Assembly (NCBI RefSeq): GCF_053078305.1 | Contig: NZ_CP166879.1 | Length of the DNA: 64,000 nt | Strand: one strand, 5' to 3' | Shown: piece after piece, positions 29,336-53,815 of the stretch | Layout of the letters: each line of letters opens with the position of its first letter | How positions within the stretch are numbered: the first letter of the stretch is position 1 | Notes under the pieces: generated by a model | The model's input: the letters and a program-made list of their open reading frames with translations, nothing else | The model's database searches: none | What the model was told of the DNA's origin: nothing | Position numbers and translations under genes: made by a program

Positions 29336-30301
29336 TCACACCTCGTACTCCATCTCGCCATCCTTACGCAGCGGTATAATCTGCACCTTCTGCACGCGAT
29401 GGCTTTCTACCTGCAACGTTTTAAGCAAATAATCCCCCACCTGAACTTCTTCGCCAGGTTTTGGAATACGCTGCAAATATTCCATCAACAGCCCGGCAAT
29501 GGTGTGATATTCACGTTTTTCATCCAGCGGCAGCGGCACATATTGCACCAGATCCTCCAGCGGCATATGACCATTCGCCGTCCAGGAACCGTCCGCATTC
29601 TTCTGAATATCATGGCGGGCGTCGATCTCTTCCACTTCGTTCGGTAAGTTACCGGCAATGGTTTCAGTGACGTCACTTAATGTCACAATCCCTTCCACCG
29701 AGCCAAACTCATCCACCACAAAAGCAAAGTGCGTGCGGGCATTACGGAACTGCTCCAGGGCAGGTAACAACGGCAAGGTTTCCGGGAACACCAGCGGCTG
29801 GCGAATCAACACCCGCAGGTTGAGCGGTTCGCCACGCAGAGACTGTTGTAGCAGGTCGATAACGTGAACAACACCGAGCAAATCTTCTGCGTCATCGCCA
29901 TCAGTAACCACCAGCCGCGTATGCTGATTTCGCTCCAGTAACTGGCGGATCTCGTCTTCCGGCGCGTTGAGATCGATATGCTCAATATCGTGGCGCGACG
30001 TCATAATGCTGCTGACGGTACGCTGGTTAAGATTAAGTACCCGCTCAATCATCCGCCGTTCCTGCGGATTAAAGATCTGCTGGTTACCATGATCCACCAG
30101 CATGGACGCGGTTTCGGCGTCCAGTTCCGCATCTTCTTTTTGCCCGCTAAGCAGGCGCATTACCGCTTCGGTAGTCCGCTGGCGCAGCGTCTGGTTAGCG
30201 GAAAGAAAACGTCGCCGGTTAAAGATAGCCAACTGATTGAGCGCCTCGATCATCACCGAGAAACCAATAGCAGCGTACAGGTAGCCTTTCGGAATGACGA
30301 A
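29336..30301 (-). pseudogene. yegH: yegH (TerC-CBS-CorC membrane protein) 3' fragment, truncated by prophage insertion
   Basis: Frame encodes ...GFVIPKGYLYAAIGFSVMIEALNQ... through C-terminus (~321 aa); upstream of 30301 the frame hits a stop and sequence becomes AT-rich prophage-end DNA. Confidence 0.8.
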
Positions 30302-32457: not shown

Positions 32458-34515
32458 TTATGCCGCAGGGGTATTAACCTCAAGGACAACGCTCTCAAAA
32501 GACACGCCATAAGTTGCCCCTTTGGTGACATCTGTCAGTGTCAGCGTATCTTTGGCAGGGGAAAGTGCATCTTTCACCATCTGGAATGCCTGGCCCGGAG
32601 TGCCATCCAGCACAGGCGTTACCTGGGCACTTCCCGCAGTAAACTTCAGGACAAGTGTATGCCACTGGTTATTGTAGGCTCCAAATGATCCCAGTTTCGT
32701 ATTCCCCCCTGTTTTATGGTGCATCAGATTTAACTGGCCGCCTGTTGTCTGGAGATAATACGCCATCAGGAACGGTGTGCCTGTACCACTCATGGTTACA
32801 CCTTCCGGGACCGTATCGGTGTGGAGGTAAATACCCAGAGCAAACTGGCCTTCTTTTACTTCACCTGACAGACGGAATTTACAGGTCAACTGACCACCAT
32901 GCTTCAGAAGTTCACCGGCTGCATCAGTTCCATGGGTAAGCGTCCAGGTTTTTCCGCTTTGTTTGGATACGGTCAACGCTTTACCTTCGTCCGTCAGCTG
33001 GATTGTACCATCTGTAATTTTCCATCCCTGAGCCGGGGCTTCCCCTGCTGATGCTTTAAGTGAAAGCAGCGTACGGAGTGACGGGGATGTCGGCTGGGGG
33101 GACTCACTGCTTCCTGGCTGACTACCTGTCGGAGCTTCCGGTTTTCCACCCGGCGCGGGCTGAGGCAGGGCTTCACCATCAGGGGCCACACCGGCAATAA
33201 ATGCAGAGGTCAGACCTGCATATTTAAGAATTGCTGATGCAAAACGATCTGAGACCAGAAAACGGCGCGCCCAGGAGCTAAAATGGGTTGCCCTGGATGC
33301 TGTTGTCCAGTTGCCATCTCCCCGTGATTCCGCACCATAATACCCGGCAGAAGCGATATCCGGGTCGTGCTCCGGCAGGTTGGTCGCGGTTTTATTACCG
33401 AACTCATCGTGCATCAGTGGAACAAAGTGAATGTTCTCGGAAGCCCGGTTTTTATATCCGCTATAAATGGTTTCATATGCCGCCGGGTTCTTCTCTTTCC
33501 AGTCATAGGTTGTGTCACCACATAACCACGGCACACTGTCTGATGAACCACCAATACACTGACCGGAGAAAGCACCAAGATCCGCACGGAATTTTTTCAC
33601 CATCGCAGTAAACTGGGCACCATGCTGGGCCGGGGTCGCTTTAAGGTCTCCTTCCCCCTGAATCCATACGACAGATAACAGCACATTCTTTGGATTCGCC
33701 TCAAGTGCCGCTTTCGTTCGACTGACAAGATCCTGATACAGTGGGGTATCCACTCCCCAGCGTAGTGACGCCTCGGCTGCACCACTTGCCGGATCGAATG
33801 AGCCAACTGCGCCGGTTGTAAAAGCAGAGCCGCCACGGGCACAGGGAACCAGTAAAATCCCGGCATCAGCAGGAATCACCGGTAATACTTTTTTCGCAAT
33901 ATGAAGTCCCTGACCCACACAACCATACTGCCCTTTTTTCAGGTCTGCTTTTGGATGGTTCAGCAGACTCATATTCTGAACATCATGAAGGCAGTGATCT
34001 GCTGGAATGATTTCATTGTATTTGCAGGGAATACCCCCGGGGGTTTGTGTATTCCTGCGTGCCAGCTGCATAATACGTGGATCAGGACGATCATAAGAAT
34101 CCGGCAGGGGCAACCCTTCACCATAAGATGAAGCATTGGACTGACCGGCTATAACAATCACGTAATACCAGGAAGGGGAGCTGGAAGCCGTTTCATTTCC
34201 TGCCGGACGGGTATGTGTGTCAGCATTATCCCAGTCTGACGGTTCAGCAGTACCGGCAACATCAGCACTTAACGGAATGACAGCACCAATACCCGCTCCG
34301 GTAATTTCCACGTTCGGATCACCGGATACTGGCCTTACCCACAGGCAATCCCGTGTATTAAAACTGATGAGACAGTCAGCAAATGTCATTCCTCCTTTCG
34401 TTTCAGCCGGAGGAAAGGGAGCCTCAAGAAATGCCGCTGTACCACCGGAAACTTTAACGGTAAAGTTTCCGGGCATTGATGATAGTTGAACCCATTTGGA
34501 CGTCATAATATTCAT
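32458..34515 (-). CDS. SGNH/SASA-family carbohydrate esterase, NanS-p-like (putative sialate O-acetylesterase) with C-terminal lectin-like domain
   Basis: 685-aa ORF; VIVIAGQSNASSYGEG (GQSN block I), CARGGSAF, IQGEGD, DGNW...H blocks; Pro/Ser linker then beta-rich C-terminus. Confidence 0.55.
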   Translation of the reverse strand: MNIMTSKWVQLSSMPGNFTVKVSGGTAAFLEAPFPPAETKGGMTFADCLISFNTRDCLWVRPVSGDPNVEITGAGIGAVIPLSADVAGTAEPSDWDNADTHTRPAGNETASSSPSWYYVIVIAGQSNASSYGEGLPLPDSYDRPDPRIMQLARRNTQTPGGIPCKYNEIIPADHCLHDVQNMSLLNHPKADLKKGQYGCVGQGLHIAKKVLPVIPADAGILLVPCARGGSAFTTGAVGSFDPASGAAEASLRWGVDTPLYQDLVSRTKAALEANPKNVLLSVVWIQGEGDLKATPAQHGAQFTAMVKKFRADLGAFSGQCIGGSSDSVPWLCGDTTYDWKEKNPAAYETIYSGYKNRASENIHFVPLMHDEFGNKTATNLPEHDPDIASAGYYGAESRGDGNWTTASRATHFSSWARRFLVSDRFASAILKYAGLTSAFIAGVAPDGEALPQPAPGGKPEAPTGSQPGSSESPQPTSPSLRTLLSLKASAGEAPAQGWKITDGTIQLTDEGKALTVSKQSGKTWTLTHGTDAAGELLKHGGQLTCKFRLSGEVKEGQFALGIYLHTDTVPEGVTMSGTGTPFLMAYYLQTTGGQLNLMHHKTGGNTKLGSFGAYNNQWHTLVLKFTAGSAQVTPVLDGTPGQAFQMVKDALSPAKDTLTLTDVTKGATYGVSFESVVLEVNTPAA

Positions 34516-34605: not shown

Positions 34606-34910
34606 TTATTTTTCCGAAATGCTCGCAGGATAATAACGATAAAGGGTTGAAAGGCCGATATCAAAAATAAGTGCCACCTGTCTTCGGCTGACACCCCCGG
34701 CCAGTAAACGCCCGACCTGCTCGTATTGTTCCTGCGTGAGACGACGGGGTCTGCCGCCGGTTCGTCCCCTTTCACGGGCAGCTGCAAGACCAGCCCGTGT
34801 CCGTTCGACAATCAATTCACGCTCCATTTCTGCCAGCGCACCCATTATGTGAAAAAAGAAGCGCCCCATGGGGGTTGACGTATCAATGTTGTCAGTAAGA
34901 CTACGAAAAT
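34606..34910 (-). pseudogene. gin: gin/pin-family DNA invertase, C-terminal fragment (HTH domain)
   Basis: Encodes FRSLTDNIDTSTPMGRFFFHIMGALAEMERELIVERT...GGRPRRLT...; matches Gin from about residue 90 onward. Confidence 0.8.
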
Positions 34911-34996
34911 GTAAGCGTAAACTGACCGCCGTATGTAGCCATTAAGCCAGTATTGGTAACGTAGGTGCCCACCTTTTCAACTAGTGGACACCTGTT

Positions 34997-35422
34997 ATGG
35001 AACAGAAAATATTATCCTCAGAACCCCGCAGATCATTTTCAAATGAGTTTAAACTTCAAATGGTTAAACTGGCTTCACAACCAGGAGCCTCTGTTGCCCG
35101 TATTGCCCGGGAACACGATATCAATGATAACCTCCTGTTCAAATGGCTCAGGCTCTGGCAGAACGAAGGGCGTATATCGCGGCGTCTTCCGGTAACAACC
35201 TCTTCTGGCGCTGGCGTTGAATTATTACCTGTTGAGATAACGCCTGATGAGCAGAAAGAGCCTGTGGCGGCTCTTACTCCGCTTTTATCCACTCCTTCAC
35301 AAAGCACAGTCAGTGCCAGTTCCTGTAAAGTTGAGTTCCGCCACGGTAACATGACGCTGGAAAATCCTTCACCAGAGCTGCTCACGGTGTTGATCCGTGA
35401 ACTGACCGGGAGGGGACGATGA
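34997..35422 (+). CDS. tnpA: IS66 family accessory protein TnpA (orf1)
   Basis: 141-aa ORF with HTH-like N-terminus. Confidence 0.85.
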   Translation: MEQKILSSEPRRSFSNEFKLQMVKLASQPGASVARIAREHDINDNLLFKWLRLWQNEGRISRRLPVTTSSGAGVELLPVEITPDEQKEPVAALTPLLSTPSQSTVSASSCKVEFRHGNMTLENPSPELLTVLIRELTGRGR

Positions 35423-35769
35423 TCTCGCTCCCATCAGGCACTCGAATCTGGCTGGTTGCCGGCGTTACTGATATGCGTAAATCCTTCAACGGTCTGGGAG
35501 AACAGGTACAACATGTGCTGGATGAGAACCCCTTCTCCGGTCACCTGTTTATCTTTCGCGGCCGACGGGGTGACACGATTAAAATTCTGTGGGCTGATGC
35601 TGATGGTCTGTGCCTGTTCACCAAACGTCTGGAGGAAGGCCAGTTTATCTGGCCTGCGGTGCGTGACGGTAAGGTATCCATTACCCGCTCGCAGCTGGCA
35701 ATGCTCCTCGATAAACTGGACTGGCGTCAGCCCAAAACATCCCGCCTTAATGCACTGACAATGTTGTAA
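35419..35769 (+). CDS. tnpB: IS66 family protein TnpB (orf2)
   Basis: 116-aa ORF MISLPSGTRIWLVAGVTDMRKSFNGL...; 4-bp overlap with orf1. Confidence 0.9.
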   Translation: MISLPSGTRIWLVAGVTDMRKSFNGLGEQVQHVLDENPFSGHLFIFRGRRGDTIKILWADADGLCLFTKRLEEGQFIWPAVRDGKVSITRSQLAMLLDKLDWRQPKTSRLNALTML

Positions 35770-35799
35770 AAATGTCATGGCCGGATTATAAAAACGGTC

Positions 35800-37413
35800 A
35801 TGAGTCGGAAATACCTCATTCGTATCACTGAGCTGGAAAGGCTGCTCTCTGAGCAGGCTGAAGCCCTCCGTCAGAAAGATCAGCAACTGAGTCTGGTTGA
35901 AGAGACGGAGGCCTTCCTGCGCTCTGCACTGGCACGTGCCGAGGAAAAGATCGAAGAGGAGGAGCGGGAAATAGAACATCTGAGGGCCCAGATAGAAAAA
36001 CTGCGCCGGATGTTGTTCGGTACCCGTTCTGAAAAACTGCAGCGTGAGGTTGAACAGGCTGAGGCCCAACTGAAACAACGCGAACAGGAAAGCGATCGTT
36101 ACAGTGGGCGTGAGGATGACCCGCAGGTTCCCCGCCAGTTGCGACAGTCACGTCATCGTCGTCCGTTACCGGCACATCTTCCCCGTGAAATACACCGTCT
36201 GGAGCCTGAAGAAAGTTGTTGCCCGGAGTGTGGCAGTGAGCTGGATTATCTGGGGGAAGTCAGTGCTGAGCAGCTGGAACTGGTGAGTAGCGCCCTGAAA
36301 GTGATCCGCACTGTTCGGGTAAAAAAAGCCTGTACAAAATGTGACTGTATAGTTGAAGCGCCAGCGCCGTCCCGCCCGATAGAGCGCGGCATCGCGGGCT
36401 CCGGATTACTTGCCCGCGTGTTAACGGGAAAATACTGCGAACACCTGCCACTGTATCGTCAGAGTGAAATCTTTGCCCGCCAGGGCATCGAACTGAGCCG
36501 GGCATTACTCTCCAACTGGGTTGACGCATGTTGTCAGTTAATGACTCTGCTGAATGATACCCTGTACCGTTACGTGATGAACACCCGCAAGGTTCACACT
36601 GACGACACACCAGTAAAAGTGCTGGCAGCGGGCAGAAAAAAGGCAAAAACAGGACGCATCTGGACGTATGTCCGGGATGACCGGAATGCGGGCTCATCAG
36701 AGCCACCGGCGGTCTGGTTCGCCTACTCACCAGACAGGCAGGGAAAACATCCGGTACAACACCTTCGTCCCTTCCGGGGTATCCTGCAGGCGGATGCGTT
36801 CAGCGGTTACGATCGGCTGTTCAGTGCAGAACGTGAAGGTGGTGCACTGACAGAAGTTGCGTGCTGGGCCCATGCCCGGCGAAAAATCCACGATGTATAC
36901 ATCAGCAGCAAAAGTGCGACGGCAGAAGAAGCCCTGAAGCGAATCAGTGAACTGTACGCCATCGAGGATGAAATACGGGGATTACCGGAGTCAGAGCGTC
37001 TTGCCGTCAGGCAGCAGCGAAGCAAAGTGTTACTGACGTCACTGCATGAATGGATGGTGGAGAAGAATGGTACGCTGTCGAAAAAATCCAGACTGGGCGA
37101 AGCGTTCAGCTATGTACTGAATCAGTGGGATGCCCTCTGTTATTACAGTGATGACGGTCTGGCGGAGGCGGATAATAATGCTGCGGAAAGAGCGCTTCGT
37201 GCAGTCTGTCTCGGAAAGAAAAACTTTATGTTCTTTGGCAGCGATCACGGCGGCGAGCGTGGAGCACTGTTGTACGGGCTGATCGGCACCTGCCGTCTGA
37301 ACGGTATCGATCCGGAAGCGTATCTGCGCCATATCCTGAGCGTACTGCCAGAATGGCCTTCCAACCGAGTTGATGAACTCCTGCCATGGAACGTAGTACT
37401 CACCAATAAATAA
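35800..37413 (+). CDS. tnpC: IS66 family transposase TnpC (orf3)
   Basis: 537-aa ORF with leucine-zipper N-terminus, CxxC zinc motifs and DDE-type core. Confidence 0.9.
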   Translation: MSRKYLIRITELERLLSEQAEALRQKDQQLSLVEETEAFLRSALARAEEKIEEEEREIEHLRAQIEKLRRMLFGTRSEKLQREVEQAEAQLKQREQESDRYSGREDDPQVPRQLRQSRHRRPLPAHLPREIHRLEPEESCCPECGSELDYLGEVSAEQLELVSSALKVIRTVRVKKACTKCDCIVEAPAPSRPIERGIAGSGLLARVLTGKYCEHLPLYRQSEIFARQGIELSRALLSNWVDACCQLMTLLNDTLYRYVMNTRKVHTDDTPVKVLAAGRKKAKTGRIWTYVRDDRNAGSSEPPAVWFAYSPDRQGKHPVQHLRPFRGILQADAFSGYDRLFSAEREGGALTEVACWAHARRKIHDVYISSKSATAEEALKRISELYAIEDEIRGLPESERLAVRQQRSKVLLTSLHEWMVEKNGTLSKKSRLGEAFSYVLNQWDALCYYSDDGLAEADNNAAERALRAVCLGKKNFMFFGSDHGGERGALLYGLIGTCRLNGIDPEAYLRHILSVLPEWPSNRVDELLPWNVVLTNK

Positions 37414-37443
37414 GCGTCAATACGGTGCTCCGTTGACGCTTAC

Positions 37444-37705
37444 GAAAATTTATCCCCTGTTGCTGTAATTCATCTGTCAGCGCAACAAGGTGGCGCATAC
37501 TGCGCCCCAGCCTGTCCAGTTTCCAGACCATCAGCGTGTCACCGGGTTTTAGTTTCTTCAGTGCCCGCTTCAGTCCCGGCCGCTGCGTTGTTTTTCCGCT
37601 CATTTTATCTTCAAAAATCAGCTCACATCCTGCACATTCCAGCGCATTTCTTTGTAAACCTGTGTTCTGGTCATTTGTTGATACGCGTATATAGCCAATC
37701 AGCAT
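37444..37705 (-). pseudogene. gin: gin/pin-family DNA invertase, N-terminal fragment (catalytic Ser domain)
   Basis: MLIGYIRVSTNDQNTGLQRNALECAGCE...GDTLMVWKLDRLGRSMRHL...GINFR then IS-derived tail; ORF-track 37400..37705. Confidence 0.85.
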
Positions 37706-37759
37706 GTATTTACCTTCCTTAAAAAGAGGTGAAAATGCCTTTTAAAGCAGATATACGAC

Positions 37760-37785
37760 ATACCTGAAACCTCGGTTTACGGGAA
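37760..37785 (-). promoter_or_regulatory. gix-like recombination site (invertase crossover site), gin-proximal
   Basis: Minus-strand TTCCCGTAAACCGAGGTTTCAGGTAT vs recalled Mu gix TTCCTGTAAACCGAGGTTTTGGATAA (21/26). Confidence 0.6.
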
Positions 37786-38154
37786 ACGGTAAACAGGGCT
37801 GCAAATGCCCTGCCATCGAATGGTACAGCCGTAGCGGCAAACAAGCTGTCTGCGGCACGTAAAATTAACGGTGTTGCGTTCGATGGCACAAAGGACATCA
37901 CTATTACATCCGGGATGACCCAGTCTACAGCAGACGGCAGATATGTTCGTAATGTGCAACTTGGTGCTCAGAGCCGCCACTCTCCTGCGGGTAATGAAGT
38001 CACCTGGGATTATAAAACGCCAGCAGGTTGTATGCTTTCTGGTATTCATGTGCAGGATACCGGCTCCCGGTCTGCGGATAATATCGGTGGGGTCTATTAT
38101 CGCCCGGTTCAGATTTATATTAATAATGCCTGGAGAACGGTAAGTTCAGTGTAA
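37768..38154 (+). other. silent alternative tail-fibre C-terminal cassette (Sv'-like), no own start codon
   Basis: Frame open from 37768: NLGLRETVNRAANALPSNGTAVAANKLSAARKINGVAFDGTKDITITSGMTQSTADGRYV..., paralogous to C-terminus of the 38790..39677 fibre. Confidence 0.6.
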
Positions 38155-38188
38155 ACCACAGAAAAGGGTGCTGAATGCACCCTCTGAA

Positions 38189-38710
38189 TTATTCCGGTTT
38201 TTCCGGCCAGGAAATCGCCAGGTAATGTCTCTCGCTGGCAATATCATTAAGGTGCATTTCTTTAAGCTGTCGGATATACGCCATCCAGCGCGTCAGCTTT
38301 AATTTATTTTCATCGCTAATCATGTCCAGTTTTAGTTCTGTTTTCCAGTCATCCACGGTTCCGTTGGCCTCCTGGAGCAGCGATGAACGGCGATTTTCAG
38401 CAACCGTATTCCAGTTTACCGGCACCTTTGATATCAGGCCATCAGAAAACTGCCAGTTACCGTCAATATTCACACCTTCCGGCAGTTGGTCCACTTCAAC
38501 AACAGTAAAACCCGCCGGATATAAAGCAGAGACATCTTCAGCAACAGAGCAGATAATACCCGTTACAGGCGAAATACAGAGTTTGTATTTCTTTGTGAAA
38601 AGCGGGATAGATTCATAAAAATCCCTTCCGTCCTCACTCTGGAAATACTGAACATTCTCACCATAGGGTTTGTGTTCTGGGTAATATCGTTTTACGTTAA
38701 TAAGCTCCAT
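38189..38710 (-). CDS. tail fibre assembly protein (Tfa/U-like), 173 aa from MELINVK
   Basis: ORF-track frame 38189..38821; AAGGTGA RBS before ATG at 38710. Confidence 0.75.
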   Translation of the reverse strand: MELINVKRYYPEHKPYGENVQYFQSEDGRDFYESIPLFTKKYKLCISPVTGIICSVAEDVSALYPAGFTVVEVDQLPEGVNIDGNWQFSDGLISKVPVNWNTVAENRRSSLLQEANGTVDDWKTELKLDMISDENKLKLTRWMAYIRQLKEMHLNDIASERHYLAISWPEKPE

Positions 38711-38789
38711 TATTTCACCTTGTTTTTGTTGAAAAGACAAAATCATCATATATTTATTCAGATAATCTGTTTTTTGAACTACTGCACTT

Positions 38790-39677
38790 TTATGCGCTGG
38801 AAGCTGTTTTCCACGAACCATTTATCAGAAACTGAACAGGTCGATAATATGCGGTTACCGTCGCATTACCATCACCAGCGACATCAAGCCCTGTAAGTAC
38901 GCATCCGTCAGGAACTTCAAAAATATTATATTGCATTCCAATCGTTGACCTTGAACCTCTTCGAATGCTTTGAACATAACGTGAGTCAGCCACAGACTGC
39001 GTCATCCCCGATGTAATATTTATATCCTTCGTTCCGTCGAAAGGAACCCCATTAATATTTACTGGGGTGGCGAGTTTATTCGCTGCCACGGCGGTTCCAC
39101 CCGATGGCAGGGCATCAGCAGCCTTATTTACCGTTTCCCGTAAACCGACGTTATCGATAAAGGTTCCTTTGTCCGGGATATCCGCGCCATTCTGGTCCCT
39201 GCGCAGATAACGCGCATCGCCTTCTCCCTTACTGTAAACATCAAGATTCAGACGAGCCGTCGGTTTATCCGGTACATCGTCAAAATTCCGGGATTTCTCC
39301 AGTGCTCCCACATCAGCAGCAGCCAGGCTGTCTTTTCCTGATAATCCTCCCAGCCCCAGATGACGGCGGGCAGCAGCCTGTGCTTCTGCACCTGCATCCG
39401 CAATCTCCTTAAGGTTGTTTTTCCGGCTGTATGCGTTTGCTGCAATGATTGCCTTAATGGCTGTCACCAGCTGGTTCAGTTTTGCCTTATCCGGCTGAAC
39501 CTTTCCTTCTGTCAGAATGGCAAGCAGCTCTGCCTGCACGATGTTCAGCCAGTCCTGACCGATATAGCTGATCCCTTTGCGTCCGTCACCTTCAGTAAAC
39601 CATTTAACCTGCGTACCCTGAGAGGGGGCCAGTGGTGGCATATCGGTCACACCTGAATTGTTGTCGACAAAATACAT
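38790..39677 (-). CDS. tail fibre protein (S-like; constant N-terminal part plus currently expressed variable C-terminus)
   Basis: 295-aa ORF; C-terminal third is paralogous to the plus-strand cassette; gix-like site inside at the constant/variable junction. Confidence 0.8.
   Translation of the reverse strand: MYFVDNNSGVTDMPPLAPSQGTQVKWFTEGDGRKGISYIGQDWLNIVQAELLAILTEGKVQPDKAKLNQLVTAIKAIIAANAYSRKNNLKEIADAGAEAQAAARRHLGLGGLSGKDSLAAADVGALEKSRNFDDVPDKPTARLNLDVYSKGEGDARYLRRDQNGADIPDKGTFIDNVGLRETVNKAADALPSGGTAVAANKLATPVNINGVPFDGTKDINITSGMTQSVADSRYVQSIRRGSRSTIGMQYNIFEVPDGCVLTGLDVAGDGNATVTAYYRPVQFLINGSWKTASSA
39135..39160 (+). promoter_or_regulatory. gix-like recombination site inside tail-fibre gene
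   Basis: TTCCCGTAAACCGACGTTATCGATAA; inverted relative to site at 37760-37785. Confidence 0.6.
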
Positions 39678-40234
39678 TACTCCGTCTCCTCATGACTGTT
39701 TTCGTACAGATATAAAAACGTCTGCCAGGCTGGCTTATAACGGTTTAAAATGCACTCCAGCGCACTTGCATCATAAATTCGCAGTGGTGTAAGAATATCG
39801 TCCAGTACATTCATGTGACGGTATCCCACCGCCGTCTTCACTGTCACAATACTGATCCATTGTGATTCCGGTGATGGCTGGATATCTATTTCATAACCAA
39901 ACTCTGCCGCAAACCGGATATAAAATTCACGGTTAAGAGAGGGTTTCATCCGGTATTTATTCCCGGCATAACGCTGACGCTCCTGAATGGTTGCGCCGGT
40001 CATATCACATTCCGGTAACCCCAGATAACGCTCCCAGTCTTCCAGTAGCAGACGGGATGAATCAGGAAAACGTTCTGCCAGCATCTGGTTACCGGTCCAG
40101 GAAACACGCTCCGTGGAATGACTGAGACCCAGGCACAAAGCTGCAAGAACGGATGACGGCCGCTTATCCCATGCCAGCCCGTCAGGCAGCAACTGCAACA
40201 GGGCGCGCTGATGCGGGGTCAGGGTTACAGCCAT
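39677..40234 (-). CDS. Mu gp48-like tail protein (DUF2313/YmfQ-like)
   Basis: 185-aa ORF; position between baseplate J and tail fibre. Confidence 0.7.
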   Translation of the reverse strand: MAVTLTPHQRALLQLLPDGLAWDKRPSSVLAALCLGLSHSTERVSWTGNQMLAERFPDSSRLLLEDWERYLGLPECDMTGATIQERQRYAGNKYRMKPSLNREFYIRFAAEFGYEIDIQPSPESQWISIVTVKTAVGYRHMNVLDDILTPLRIYDASALECILNRYKPAWQTFLYLYENSHEETE

Positions 40235-41310
40235 GTGATTTCCCCCACGGTCAGCAACTCTGTATCTCCGGCCATTACGGACTTCAGCGGACTGCGAACT
40301 TCAAAATCCTCCAGTCCTTTCACCCCTGCAACAGCCCGCCAGAATGATGAAGGCAATACAAGTCCACCCGGCCGCGATTCGTTATAAAGCAGGTCCGTTA
40401 ATGCCTGTTTTACGGCAGCCTGATTTTCCGGCGTTTTGGGTACAATCCTGATCTCAAACGCCACCGGCTTATTGGTCAGCTTAAACACGCTGATTGTCGG
40501 CCCAAGTGGCTGACCAACGGGCTGGCCCGTCGCCGGATCATCATGACTGCGGATATAATCCGCCACCCGCTTCACATCACCTTCTCCGGGGAAAATGTCA
40601 GGGTTATTATCCTGAACAAAAGTCACACCAACACTACCCGCCTCTGGCCATTCAGGCTTACACCATGCCCGCGTCACGCCCGGTACTTCCCGTGCCCAAC
40701 GTTCAAAATCATACTGTGTTCCCCCTGATGGCGGGTTCTGTACCCGGAATACCAGCCTGGACAGCAACTCCGGCACCGTTTCCACATCCGCACCACCGGT
40801 GAGTCCCGTGCCGGTAACCGTGGCTGTCTGGTTGATGCCCGCCTGTGGCGTGATAAAGGACAGGCGGGTTCCGGTCGGGGTATTTCCGGCGCGCCCCGCA
40901 CTTTCCGCCTCCACATTAACATTCAGTGTTCCGGCTTTTCCGGTCGCAGAGCCGGTGATGCGGTACACAACACCATCGCTTCGCTGAAGGAGTACGCCTT
41001 CCGTGATCCCTGCATCCGTGGTCAGCATCAGTTGTACCGGTCCGTCAGCGCGGGAAGCCGGTTTACGGATGACACCCCAGAATGCGCAGTGTTTCAGGAG
41101 TTCGGCTTCATCAGCTTCTGTCGGAATTATCTGCCGGGAGATCCAGGCCAGATGTTCATGCTCCTGTGCTGACAGACCCGCCAGTGCATACGCAATGGCA
41201 TTCAGGGTGGTTTCATTCACGCCCGGCTGCGAACCGGGCAGGCGCTGGCTGATATCCTGTTGTGTCTGTGTGATCAGTTGCGCCAGTGGTAAGGGCTGAT
41301 AAGGCATCAT
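40225..41310 (-). CDS. baseplate J-like protein (Mu gp47-like)
   Basis: 361-aa ORF; synteny. Confidence 0.8.
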   Translation of the reverse strand: MMPYQPLPLAQLITQTQQDISQRLPGSQPGVNETTLNAIAYALAGLSAQEHEHLAWISRQIIPTEADEAELLKHCAFWGVIRKPASRADGPVQLMLTTDAGITEGVLLQRSDGVVYRITGSATGKAGTLNVNVEAESAGRAGNTPTGTRLSFITPQAGINQTATVTGTGLTGGADVETVPELLSRLVFRVQNPPSGGTQYDFERWAREVPGVTRAWCKPEWPEAGSVGVTFVQDNNPDIFPGEGDVKRVADYIRSHDDPATGQPVGQPLGPTISVFKLTNKPVAFEIRIVPKTPENQAAVKQALTDLLYNESRPGGLVLPSSFWRAVAGVKGLEDFEVRSPLKSVMAGDTELLTVGEITWL

Positions 41311-41744: not shown

Positions 41745-42351
41745 TCTCTGGTCCTCCCGTTTTGCTGCCTTCACCGTTATCGTGATGCACATGACCTGAA
41801 TAGGCGATCCCGGCAATAACCGCTTCGGACATCGTGAACGTCCCCTGTGATCTTCCGGTGCCGTCAATGGACACATTGCCTTTGACATGCAGGTTCTTAT
41901 CCACTGTGACATTACCGGTAAAGTGAGCCTCCGGTGTATCCACCTGAACACCTTCATCGGCGTAAATCTCCAGCGTCTTACAGGTCACAATGATCCGGCC
42001 GTTCTTTGTCAGACGTATACGGTGCCCCTCATGGTGATACACGCCGGTATCTCCGGCGGTAAGTCCGGTCGGGCGACTGCGGCGGTCTTCCACCACAAGC
42101 ACCACGGCCTGATCCCGTTGTCCGCCAGCACAGGCCAGAAAAACTTCCGCACCAGGCAGGGGGACGCTGATTTGCCCGTACTGCTGGGGGCGCTCAACGT
42201 CATCAAAGGTTTCACCATCCATACAGGTGATTTGCACATTCTGGATTTTCAGCGTGTCCGTTGTGCCGGTCAGTACACCACGCCCGAACAGCAGACGAAC
42301 ACCCCGCATCACGGGGGCCAGAAGGCGGCTGATGACTTCGTCATTCATCAT
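41737..42351 (-). CDS. baseplate assembly protein V / spike (Mu gp45-like)
   Basis: 204-aa ORF; gpV-like. Confidence 0.75.
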   Translation of the reverse strand: MMNDEVISRLLAPVMRGVRLLFGRGVLTGTTDTLKIQNVQITCMDGETFDDVERPQQYGQISVPLPGAEVFLACAGGQRDQAVVLVVEDRRSRPTGLTAGDTGVYHHEGHRIRLTKNGRIIVTCKTLEIYADEGVQVDTPEAHFTGNVTVDKNLHVKGNVSIDGTGRSQGTFTMSEAVIAGIAYSGHVHHDNGEGSKTGGPENG

Positions 42352-43465
42352 TGAATTTAATCCCCTGTTTTTTCATCTGTGCCCGCACGAAGGCGTCCAC
42401 GTCACCCGCATTTCCGCTTCCGCTGTTTCCCGGCTCTGCCGGAACAATAAAGCCGTCACGGGGTGCCAGAATCAGACGGGTGGTTTCGCCGTGATTTGCA
42501 TCCAGCGAAAACTCCACCTGACAGACAAGAAGATCACGCTCTTCCACTCCGGTGCGGGGAGCCGTGACAGCCGTCAGCAGGTTGATATCCCACAACTGGC
42601 CGTTCTCCCGAAACCAGTGCCGCACGGTGGCTGTCAGGCGCACAGAGCGGGCAACCGCCCGGCGCATTTCCCGGACAGCCCTCTGGCGTGCACCGTCTGC
42701 ATCAACAGCATGATCCGCCAGCACAATTTTCGGTCTGTAACGGTGGATGGCACTGTCTGTCACCGTACCAACGGGTGCGGCCAGCGTTCCGGCTGTCAGT
42801 GCATCCCCGGCATGACCACCACCACGCCCGTGCCCCCGTACACGGTATTCACTGTGGCGCAGACGGTGATCCACGTTGTGATCCAAATCCAGCAGATTTT
42901 CGCCCAGCGTCAGCGTGTCGCCACGCTGACTGCCGGCCTGAGTGAAAACCAGTTCACCGGCGGCATTACTGGTTACCAGGACGCCTCTGTGTCTCGCGGC
43001 CCGTGTCAGCGCATCTGCCACGGTTTCTGAGTTTTCCAGTGTGAAGGTGGAAAAGGGCCGGGCTGCCGTTGCATCATTTACCTGCCAGCGCACCGTGACC
43101 CCGAACGGAGCACACAAATCTGAAGCAATGTGCTCCAGCGTGCGGTTCCTCCACTGGCTGCCCGGATGAATGGCTGAACAGTCCACCAGGTCACCGGTTT
43201 TATCCCGTCCGCTGAGCGTGATCTGAAAACGCGTGGCGCTGATGCGCTGCCGGACCTGATCCAGCCAGCCAGTGATCACAGGCTGACCGTCAATGCGCAA
43301 TTCCAGAGACTGACCGGCACGGACGGATGACGGAAGGCGTACACCTGGCATCATTACCCCCAGTTCAAAGGAGCCCGCCAGATGTTCAAGAGAGCGACGA
43401 ACACTCACCGTCAGCCAGCCGGAAAAAATCTCACCGCCCAGATACAGTTCAACCCTGCTGCTCAC
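42341..43465 (-). CDS. Mu gp44 / P2 gpD-like tail protein
   Basis: 374-aa ORF; synteny. Confidence 0.7.
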   Translation of the reverse strand: MSSRVELYLGGEIFSGWLTVSVRRSLEHLAGSFELGVMMPGVRLPSSVRAGQSLELRIDGQPVITGWLDQVRQRISATRFQITLSGRDKTGDLVDCSAIHPGSQWRNRTLEHIASDLCAPFGVTVRWQVNDATAARPFSTFTLENSETVADALTRAARHRGVLVTSNAAGELVFTQAGSQRGDTLTLGENLLDLDHNVDHRLRHSEYRVRGHGRGGGHAGDALTAGTLAAPVGTVTDSAIHRYRPKIVLADHAVDADGARQRAVREMRRAVARSVRLTATVRHWFRENGQLWDINLLTAVTAPRTGVEERDLLVCQVEFSLDANHGETTRLILAPRDGFIVPAEPGNSGSGNAGDVDAFVRAQMKKQGIKFNDE

Positions 43466-53690: not shown

Positions 53691-53815
53691 ATTGCCTCCG
53701 TGAAACTACCTGGTTAAAATAAAAGCAGGTCGGTGTACTCTTAACTGGTAAAGCGGCACCTGAGGGATATCTTCACCCGAAGGATGTTTATGTGGGTTCG
53801 ACCCCCACCACCGAC

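Follow-up and report, generated by a model that had tools for sequence, protein, structure and literature searches.

We analysed a stretch of 64,000 nucleotides (further, the window) from contig NZ_CP166879.1 of assembly GCF_053078305.1, which carries the tail-fibre locus of a Mu-like prophage. Very probably, this locus is the invertible segment that governs host range in an Sp18-like Mu-like prophage, and its cognate invertase has been knocked out by the insertion sequence (IS) IS682. A first-pass annotation, made from the same letters, had already come to a similar interpretation. Its anatomy of the locus and the inactivation of the invertase stood, while the peculiarity that it ascribed to the single tfa gene and the likelihood of locking turned out to be overstated. 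The coordinates of all features are collected in Table 1.

Table 1. Features of the invertible fibre locus and its surroundings (positions in the window).
Feature	Position	Strand	Basis or remark
Left crossover site (gix-like)	37760-37785	+	21/26 to Mu gix, core TC
Right crossover site (gix-like), in fibre coding sequence	39135-39160	-	22/26 to Mu gix, core TC
Silent alternative tip Sv', 122 codons	37786-38154	+	phrog_1833, C-terminal part, E 1.5e-51
GC-rich hairpin between convergent Sv' and tfa	38163-38185	.	terminator-like site on - strand
tfa, fibre assembly chaperone, 173 amino acids (aa)	38189-38710	-	phrog_136, E 4.8e-57; Pfam Caudo_TAP
Active variable tip Sv, 114 codons, fused to constant part	38790-39134	-	open reading frame (ORF), flip and tip comparisons
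Constant N-terminal part Sc of the 295-aa fibre (whole gene 38790-39677)	39161-39677	-	phrog_1833, full length, E 1.3e-121
Invertase, N-terminal fragment, residues 1-87 including catalytic Ser9	37450-37705	-	ORFs, reconstruction, Gin alignment
Invertase, C-terminal fragment, residues ~89-186 (helix E, helix-turn-helix DNA-binding domain)	34606-34910	-	tblastn, Gin alignment
Complete IS682 (IS66 family), 2533 bp	34911-37443	+	99.9% to annotated IS682 copies over full length
Left direct repeat GAAAAT	34905-34910	.	8 bp from 34903 if the IS terminal AC is counted
Right direct repeat GAAAAT	37444-37449	.	deletion of 34911-37449 gives back the uninterrupted allele
SASA-esterase/DUF6645 gene, 685 aa (context only)	32458-34515	-	Pfam SASA + DUF6645; phrog_143; kept in relatives
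Sp18-like Mu-like prophage; right (mom) end ~30300, runs off the window	30300-64000	-	FWSEC0008 collinearity, end mapping

Crossover sites and alternative fibre tips

The segment is bounded by two 26-bp sites of mutually inverted orientation, found exactly where the first-pass annotation had placed its two gix-like sequences. The reference gix, TTATCCAAAACCTCGGTTTACAGGAA, was taken from the Mu record, where it is present at both boundaries of the G segment. The left site, ATACCTGAAACCTCGGTTTACGGGAA, differs from it in five positions (21/26 identity) and the right one, TTATCGATAACGTCGGTTTACGGGAA, read on the minus strand, in four (22/26); the central dinucleotide of both is TC, as in Mu gix. 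A search for Mu gix with up to 3 mismatches allowed gave no match in the window, and a core-motif and fuzzy search was used instead. At the level of ≤7 mismatches it registered just these two matches in 64 kb and none in shuffled sequence. Inner half-sites are identical to gix in 11 of 12 positions. The right site sits within the fibre codons FIDNVGLRE, which correspond by homology to the place where Sc and Sv join in Mu S. From both sites similarity extends into the segment as an inverted repeat of 181 nt with 75% identity, which represents the shared proximal part of both tips, and the left site reaches 8 nt past this repeat, into non-coding DNA beside the invertase gene. In the spacer between this gene and the left site begins an ORF of only 10 codons (37736-37768, plus strand) with a strong Shine-Dalgarno sequence, AAGAGGTGAAAATG, which stops inside the left site; its frame is not that of the tip, and it has probably arisen by chance.

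The DNA between the sites comprises 1349 bp with a silent tip, one tfa gene and an active tip, so that the opposed alternative C-termini of the fibre, one fused and one silent, proposed earlier for a segment of about 1.4 kb are indeed there. Sv' matches the C-terminal third of the same phrog_1833 profile that is matched by the fibre. As found, Sc and Sv form an ORF of 295 aa, and when the segment is flipped in silico Sc reads in frame into Sv', yielding a fibre of 303 aa. In two relative loci (L003 and L004) Sv' is the active tip. The two tips have 53% identity to one another, and each has ~40% to the distal S tip of Mu.

In relative loci with the orientation of the window (L001, 7267-8234, and L006, 3767-4734) the Prokaryotic Genome Annotation Pipeline (PGAP) of RefSeq calls fibre fragments only, namely a 204-bp “phage tail protein” and a hypothetical ORF, despite an intact ORF of ~295 aa. 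The idea that the fibre is broken in this orientation, to which such fragments could lead, was rejected, as the ORFs are intact. This annotation artefact would conceal the switch in gene-based surveys.

The invertase gene and its interruption by IS682

The gene adjacent to the segment had been read as a Gin/Pin-family invertase split by a complete IS66-family element with a GAAAAT duplication, the fragments of which should reassemble into one Gin-like frame, and all parts of this reading were confirmed. Removal of 2539 bp gives a continuous Gin-like ORF of 186 aa. The restored DNA aligns without gaps with an uninterrupted E. coli locus (987 of 1000 positions), and strain FWSEC0008 has an invertase gene with 99.6% identity to the restored one. 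Residues 1–182 of the protein align with Mu Gin (PDB 3UJ3, 4M6F; E 2.1e-90), to which it is ~75% identical, Ser9 is conserved, and the protein matches phrog_125, DNA invertase. At the position where the substitution M114V renders Gin Fis-independent, the reconstructed invertase has the wild-type Met.

The insertion point falls on codons 86–88, inside the catalytic domain. The N-terminal fragment continues into the IS as a chimeric ORF of 101 aa which has neither helix E nor the DNA-binding domain, and the C-terminal fragment (34609-34914 in tblastn with the reconstructed protein, 98%) has no start codon, no promoter of its own and no active site. With catalytic Ser9 left on one fragment and helix E plus the DNA-binding domain on the other, we infer that the cognate enzyme cannot be produced and that its activity is lost. 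Judged from its sequence, the system belongs to the Gin/Hin/Cin/Pin family by descent and would not be functional in cis.

All three genes of the element, tnpA (34997-35422), tnpB (35419-35769) and tnpC (35800-37413), are intact, and IS66 TnpA, TnpB and the transposase score above the curated NCBIfam cut-offs. The terminal inverted repeats are 24 nt long and start with GTAAGCG. In its length of 2533 bp, in the order tnpA-tnpB-tnpC, in the GTAAGCG termini and in 99.9% identity the element is like the copies annotated as IS682 in many E. coli genomes. Three other IS682 copies compared have one common insertion site and a clear 8-bp duplication; unlike them, the window copy has an unambiguous flanking repeat of 6 bp, which becomes an 8-bp one, ACGAAAAT, once the AC at the end of the IS is included; 6 cannot be separated from 8 in this sequence.

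The junction between IS and invertase was found in 0 of 5426 complete E. coli genomes and is absent from the GTDB representative genomes too. An exact look-up of the chimeric 101-aa ORF showed it on record in one assembly only, the source GCA_000736735.1, which according to the genome announcement is that of E. coli strain 48 (PMC5323612). With contig JPQG01000003.1 of this assembly the window agrees exactly. The strain is also the reference for the subAB2-3 variant of subtilase cytotoxin. Signs of a recent insertion are the intact IS with its 99.9% identity to other copies, the perfect flanking repeat and a restored gene that is only ~0.4% off an intact allele. Thus, the allele is rare, and its pristine state makes a recent origin probable.

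The source assembly is a draft and IS682 is multi-copy in E. coli, which are the circumstances under which a repeat-induced misjoin might imitate an insertion. We consider such an artefact extremely improbable: both junctions are carried by one contig of 1.42 Mb, the flanking direct repeat is perfect and removal of the IS restores the target sequence exactly.

Natural inversion in related prophages

In relatives of this prophage the site-specific switch is real. Orientation of the locus was surveyed in the same 5426 complete genomes with a query of the whole region, for which at least 80% coverage in one place was required. In 22 genomes the segment was oriented as in the window and in 180 it was flipped, both groups being relatives with intact invertases; these counts are not phylogenetically independent, as they include many O157:H7 clones, and no conclusion on an orientation bias is drawn from them. 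Junction queries of 801 bp gave 15 and 181, respectively. In annotated relatives tfa is found on the strand opposite to that of the fibre when the segment is flipped, and on the same strand otherwise. The two orientations may even coexist in one genome: O157:H7 strain Z869 (NZ_CP062782.1) has two copies of the prophage with opposite orientations of the segment, at 5037669-5040529 and 1674540-1677400.

The place of the crossover is indicated by a natural marker. The inner half-site of O157:H7 ends in either of two bases (GGGAA/GGGAT). This base goes along with the segment, and the outer halves remain in place: on either side, the T variant is always beside the tfa-linked tip and the A variant always beside the other one. 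Since the half-site marker moves with the segment, the crossover takes place at the core of the 26-bp site rather than along the 181-nt repeat. The repeat itself could suggest that both orientations arise by homologous recombination, the gix-like sites being mere conserved coding sequence, all the more that the right site does lie in coding sequence conserved with Mu S. We give this explanation almost no credit. A repeat with 75% identity is a poor substrate for RecA, the left site passes 8 nt beyond it into non-coding DNA, the travelling base places the crossover inside the 26-bp site, and an orthologue of Gin (75% to Mu Gin) adjoins the segment in every relative examined.

Switching status of the interrupted locus

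In intact relatives the 186-aa serine invertase of Gin type would cut both 26-bp sites at the central TC, and strand exchange would flip the 1.35-kb segment, joining Sc either to Sv, followed by tfa, or to Sv'. In the window copy, with IS682 in codons 86–88, the cognate enzyme would not be made, the current orientation would express Sc-Sv plus tfa, and the switch would be off unless a related invertase encoded elsewhere in the genome acts in trans. As to the current status of switching, we infer, with modest confidence, that the segment is effectively frozen; that it still flips at some rate is a serious possibility.

Such flipping could be maintained by another Gin/Pin-family invertase of E. 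coli 48, encoded by e14, Rac, Qin, a P1-like plasmid or some other prophage, in which case the IS would alter the rate or regulation of switching rather than abolish it. Both sites are intact. So is the 5' end of the invertase gene (its first 256 nt), which still adjoins the left site at native spacing, the IS being 323 bp away from the centre of this site. These 256 nt have 71% nucleotide identity to Mu gin (82% over nt 1–60), and presumably include a putative Fis-dependent recombinational enhancer, which we expect there by homology with gin, hin and cin. At least one DNA homologue of the invertase (pinE, for example) is present in 3692 of the 5426 complete genomes (68%), with a near-full-length match in 1983 of them. 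Cross-activity of such enzymes is documented. According to a paper published in 2025, PinQ, PinR and PinE each invert the P segment of e14, and the same paper recalls that Fin is active on the H segment of Salmonella and PinE on the G segment of Mu (PMC12529663). In pinE mutants the P segment was locked (PMC12529663). No other invertase was found in the 64-kb window, and the outer half-sites differ from both gix and pix. Taken together, this makes inversion in trans quite conceivable, if short of probable.

Besides the non-independence of the genome counts, several points weigh against the reading as a Gin-type switch that has lost its cognate enzyme, which we nevertheless prefer. The outer half-sites diverge from Mu gix, with 8 and 9 identical positions of 12, though they are identical to, or one base off, those of relatives that do invert. 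When the 5' region of the invertase gene was scanned with the Fis consensus, a single position coincided with Mu and no pair of sites was convincing, and the scan is not counted as support for an enhancer. The source strain is known from one assembled orientation, and the search for other invertases in it covered 64 kb only.

One tfa gene for two tips

The first-pass annotation had stressed that, unlike Mu, the cassette has only one tfa. This is correct: neither a second ORF of tfa size nor any other Tfa match was found in the segment. It is not a peculiarity of this copy, since five relatives show the same layout, and an Sp18-like architecture with one tfa is conserved in every relative examined. 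It also follows, as had been suggested, that in the flipped state the expressed tip has no co-oriented chaperone, and it is this orientation, with tfa antisense to the late operon, that predominates among sequenced genomes (180 vs 22).

Tips that are 38–59% identical to Sv' occur in P2-like phages, in a Vequintavirinae-like phage and in a Yersinia phage whose invertible region is of the classical kind with two chaperones. In all three contexts the tip is directly followed by a co-oriented Tfa of the same PHROG, and by this comparison of sequences an Sv'-type tip without its own chaperone is unusual. The chaperone does not look tip-specific, because within the Sp18-type family a near-identical Tfa stands beside two different types of Sv tip, while a different Tfa (62% identical) stands beside one of the same Sv types.

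Signals that could provide separate expression of tfa were sought in its vicinity. Between the stop codon of the fibre and the start of tfa lies an AT-rich spacer of 79 bp (38711-38789), in place of which relatives carry an unrelated spacer of ~120 bp; the spacer thus occurs as two unrelated sequence types, from which no conserved motif could be extracted. For comparison, the gap between fibre and tfa is 2–3 bp in Mu and in a P2-like phage. No sigma70-like promoter was found in the 79-bp spacer, and promoter counts for the region were no higher than in shuffled sequences. The hairpin between the convergent Sv' and tfa has folding energies of -15.1 and -17.5 kcal/mol on the two strands and is a candidate bidirectional terminator.

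We tentatively suggest, aware that the odds are rather against it, that one promiscuous Tfa serves two tips, with a promoter inside the segment driving its expression in either orientation, or else that Sv' folds without a chaperone. If true, either outcome departs from the rule of Mu, P1 and e14, one chaperone per tip. The question of the single tfa is the sole part of this locus that goes beyond the textbook system.

Comparison with known systems

The closest counterparts are Sp18 of E. coli O157:H7 Sakai and its relatives in Shiga toxin-producing E. coli (STEC). They share with the window the order of genes for baseplate J, gp48/YmfQ, a fibre of ~300 aa, one tfa, a silent tip and the invertase, which is continued after the invertase by the SASA/DUF6645 gene, DUF1378, DUF826, com and mom. 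Their invertase DNA is 99% identical to that of the window, and their crossover sites differ from those of the window little or not at all. The window differs from Sp18 by the split of the invertase by IS682 and by the location of the prophage at yegH.

With the G segment of Mu the locus has in common an invertase ~75% identical from end to end, which lies beside the segment and upstream of com-mom, sites with 21–22 of 26 bases and the TC core shared and with the same position in the fibre, and tips ~40% identical to the S tip. In contrast to Mu, its segment is 1.35 kb rather than 3 kb long and its fibre has 295–303 aa instead of 504. There is one tfa where Mu has U and U', an extra SASA/DUF6645 gene stands between invertase and com, and the invertase is inactivated.

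Another fibre-tip switch of a prophage is the P segment of e14 with PinE in E. coli K-12, which likewise adjoins the gene of a small serine invertase and lies downstream of genes for baseplate J and YmfQ. For e14 both inversion by invertases of other prophages and locking in invertase mutants have been documented. Unlike the window, e14 has two tfa genes (tfaE and tfaP), and its pix sites have 8 mismatches to gix. Furthermore, e14 is a cryptic remnant, whereas the prophage of the window is collinear with apparently complete relatives.

Prophage and host context

By its gene content and collinearity this is an Sp18-type Mu-like prophage in E. coli strain 48. From ~30300 to 64000 the window is collinear with the Mu-like prophage of E. 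coli O91:H21 FWSEC0008 in blocks with 94–99% identity, apart from the IS and from the variable fibre part within the invertible segment. Genes of Mu type for transposase, Mor, head, tail and baseplate are present in the FWSEC0008 prophage, which ends with invertase, com and mom; O157:H7 and many other STEC show this gene order as well. The first match was only 88% identical, and an origin of the window outside E. coli was considered for that reason and rejected: the low identity was limited to the variable fibre region, the invertase DNA was 99% identical and the host flank is that of E. coli. The chromosomal site of the prophage differs from genome to genome, with different flanking genes in each, as is expected of a transposable phage.

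Upstream of the fibre gene, on the same minus strand, lie baseplate genes of Mu type: gp44-like (42341-43465), gp45-like, gp46-like, baseplate J (40225-41310) and gp48/YmfQ (39677-40234). On the other side, directly downstream of the invertase and before com/mom, the SASA/DUF6645 gene, with its domain of the sialate-O-acetylesterase type, has no counterpart in Mu and is conserved in Sp18-like prophages. Its product may be a glycan-modifying tail accessory or the gene may serve lysogenic conversion, and the IS upstream of it could affect its expression. In the FWSEC0008 prophage RefSeq annotates a “tRNA-OTHER” (L011, 19355-19442) between head-morphogenesis and virion-morphogenesis genes; the corresponding region of the window is ~53700-53800.

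The right end of the prophage adjoins the C-terminal 306 aa that remain of a membrane protein of CNNM/TerC type (29336-30300), next to asmA and dcd. By position this remnant is yegH, which the prophage interrupts. Close relatives with the prophage at the yegH site were sought, and among the complete E. coli genomes none has it there.

Biological meaning

The locus adds a new, rare allele to a switch that is known, if little studied, and does not overturn current understanding; the knockout of a known type of switch by an IS is ordinary, but well documented here. It offers a clean natural case in which an IS has knocked out the enzyme of phase variation and spared the sites acting in cis. Virions produced from this prophage would probably carry one type of fibre and, consequently, have a fixed host range. 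In STEC at large, the host-range switch of Sp18 type is active in nature and runs with a single tfa, which bears on the recognition of tips by fibre chaperones and on the engineering of host range with minimal cassettes.

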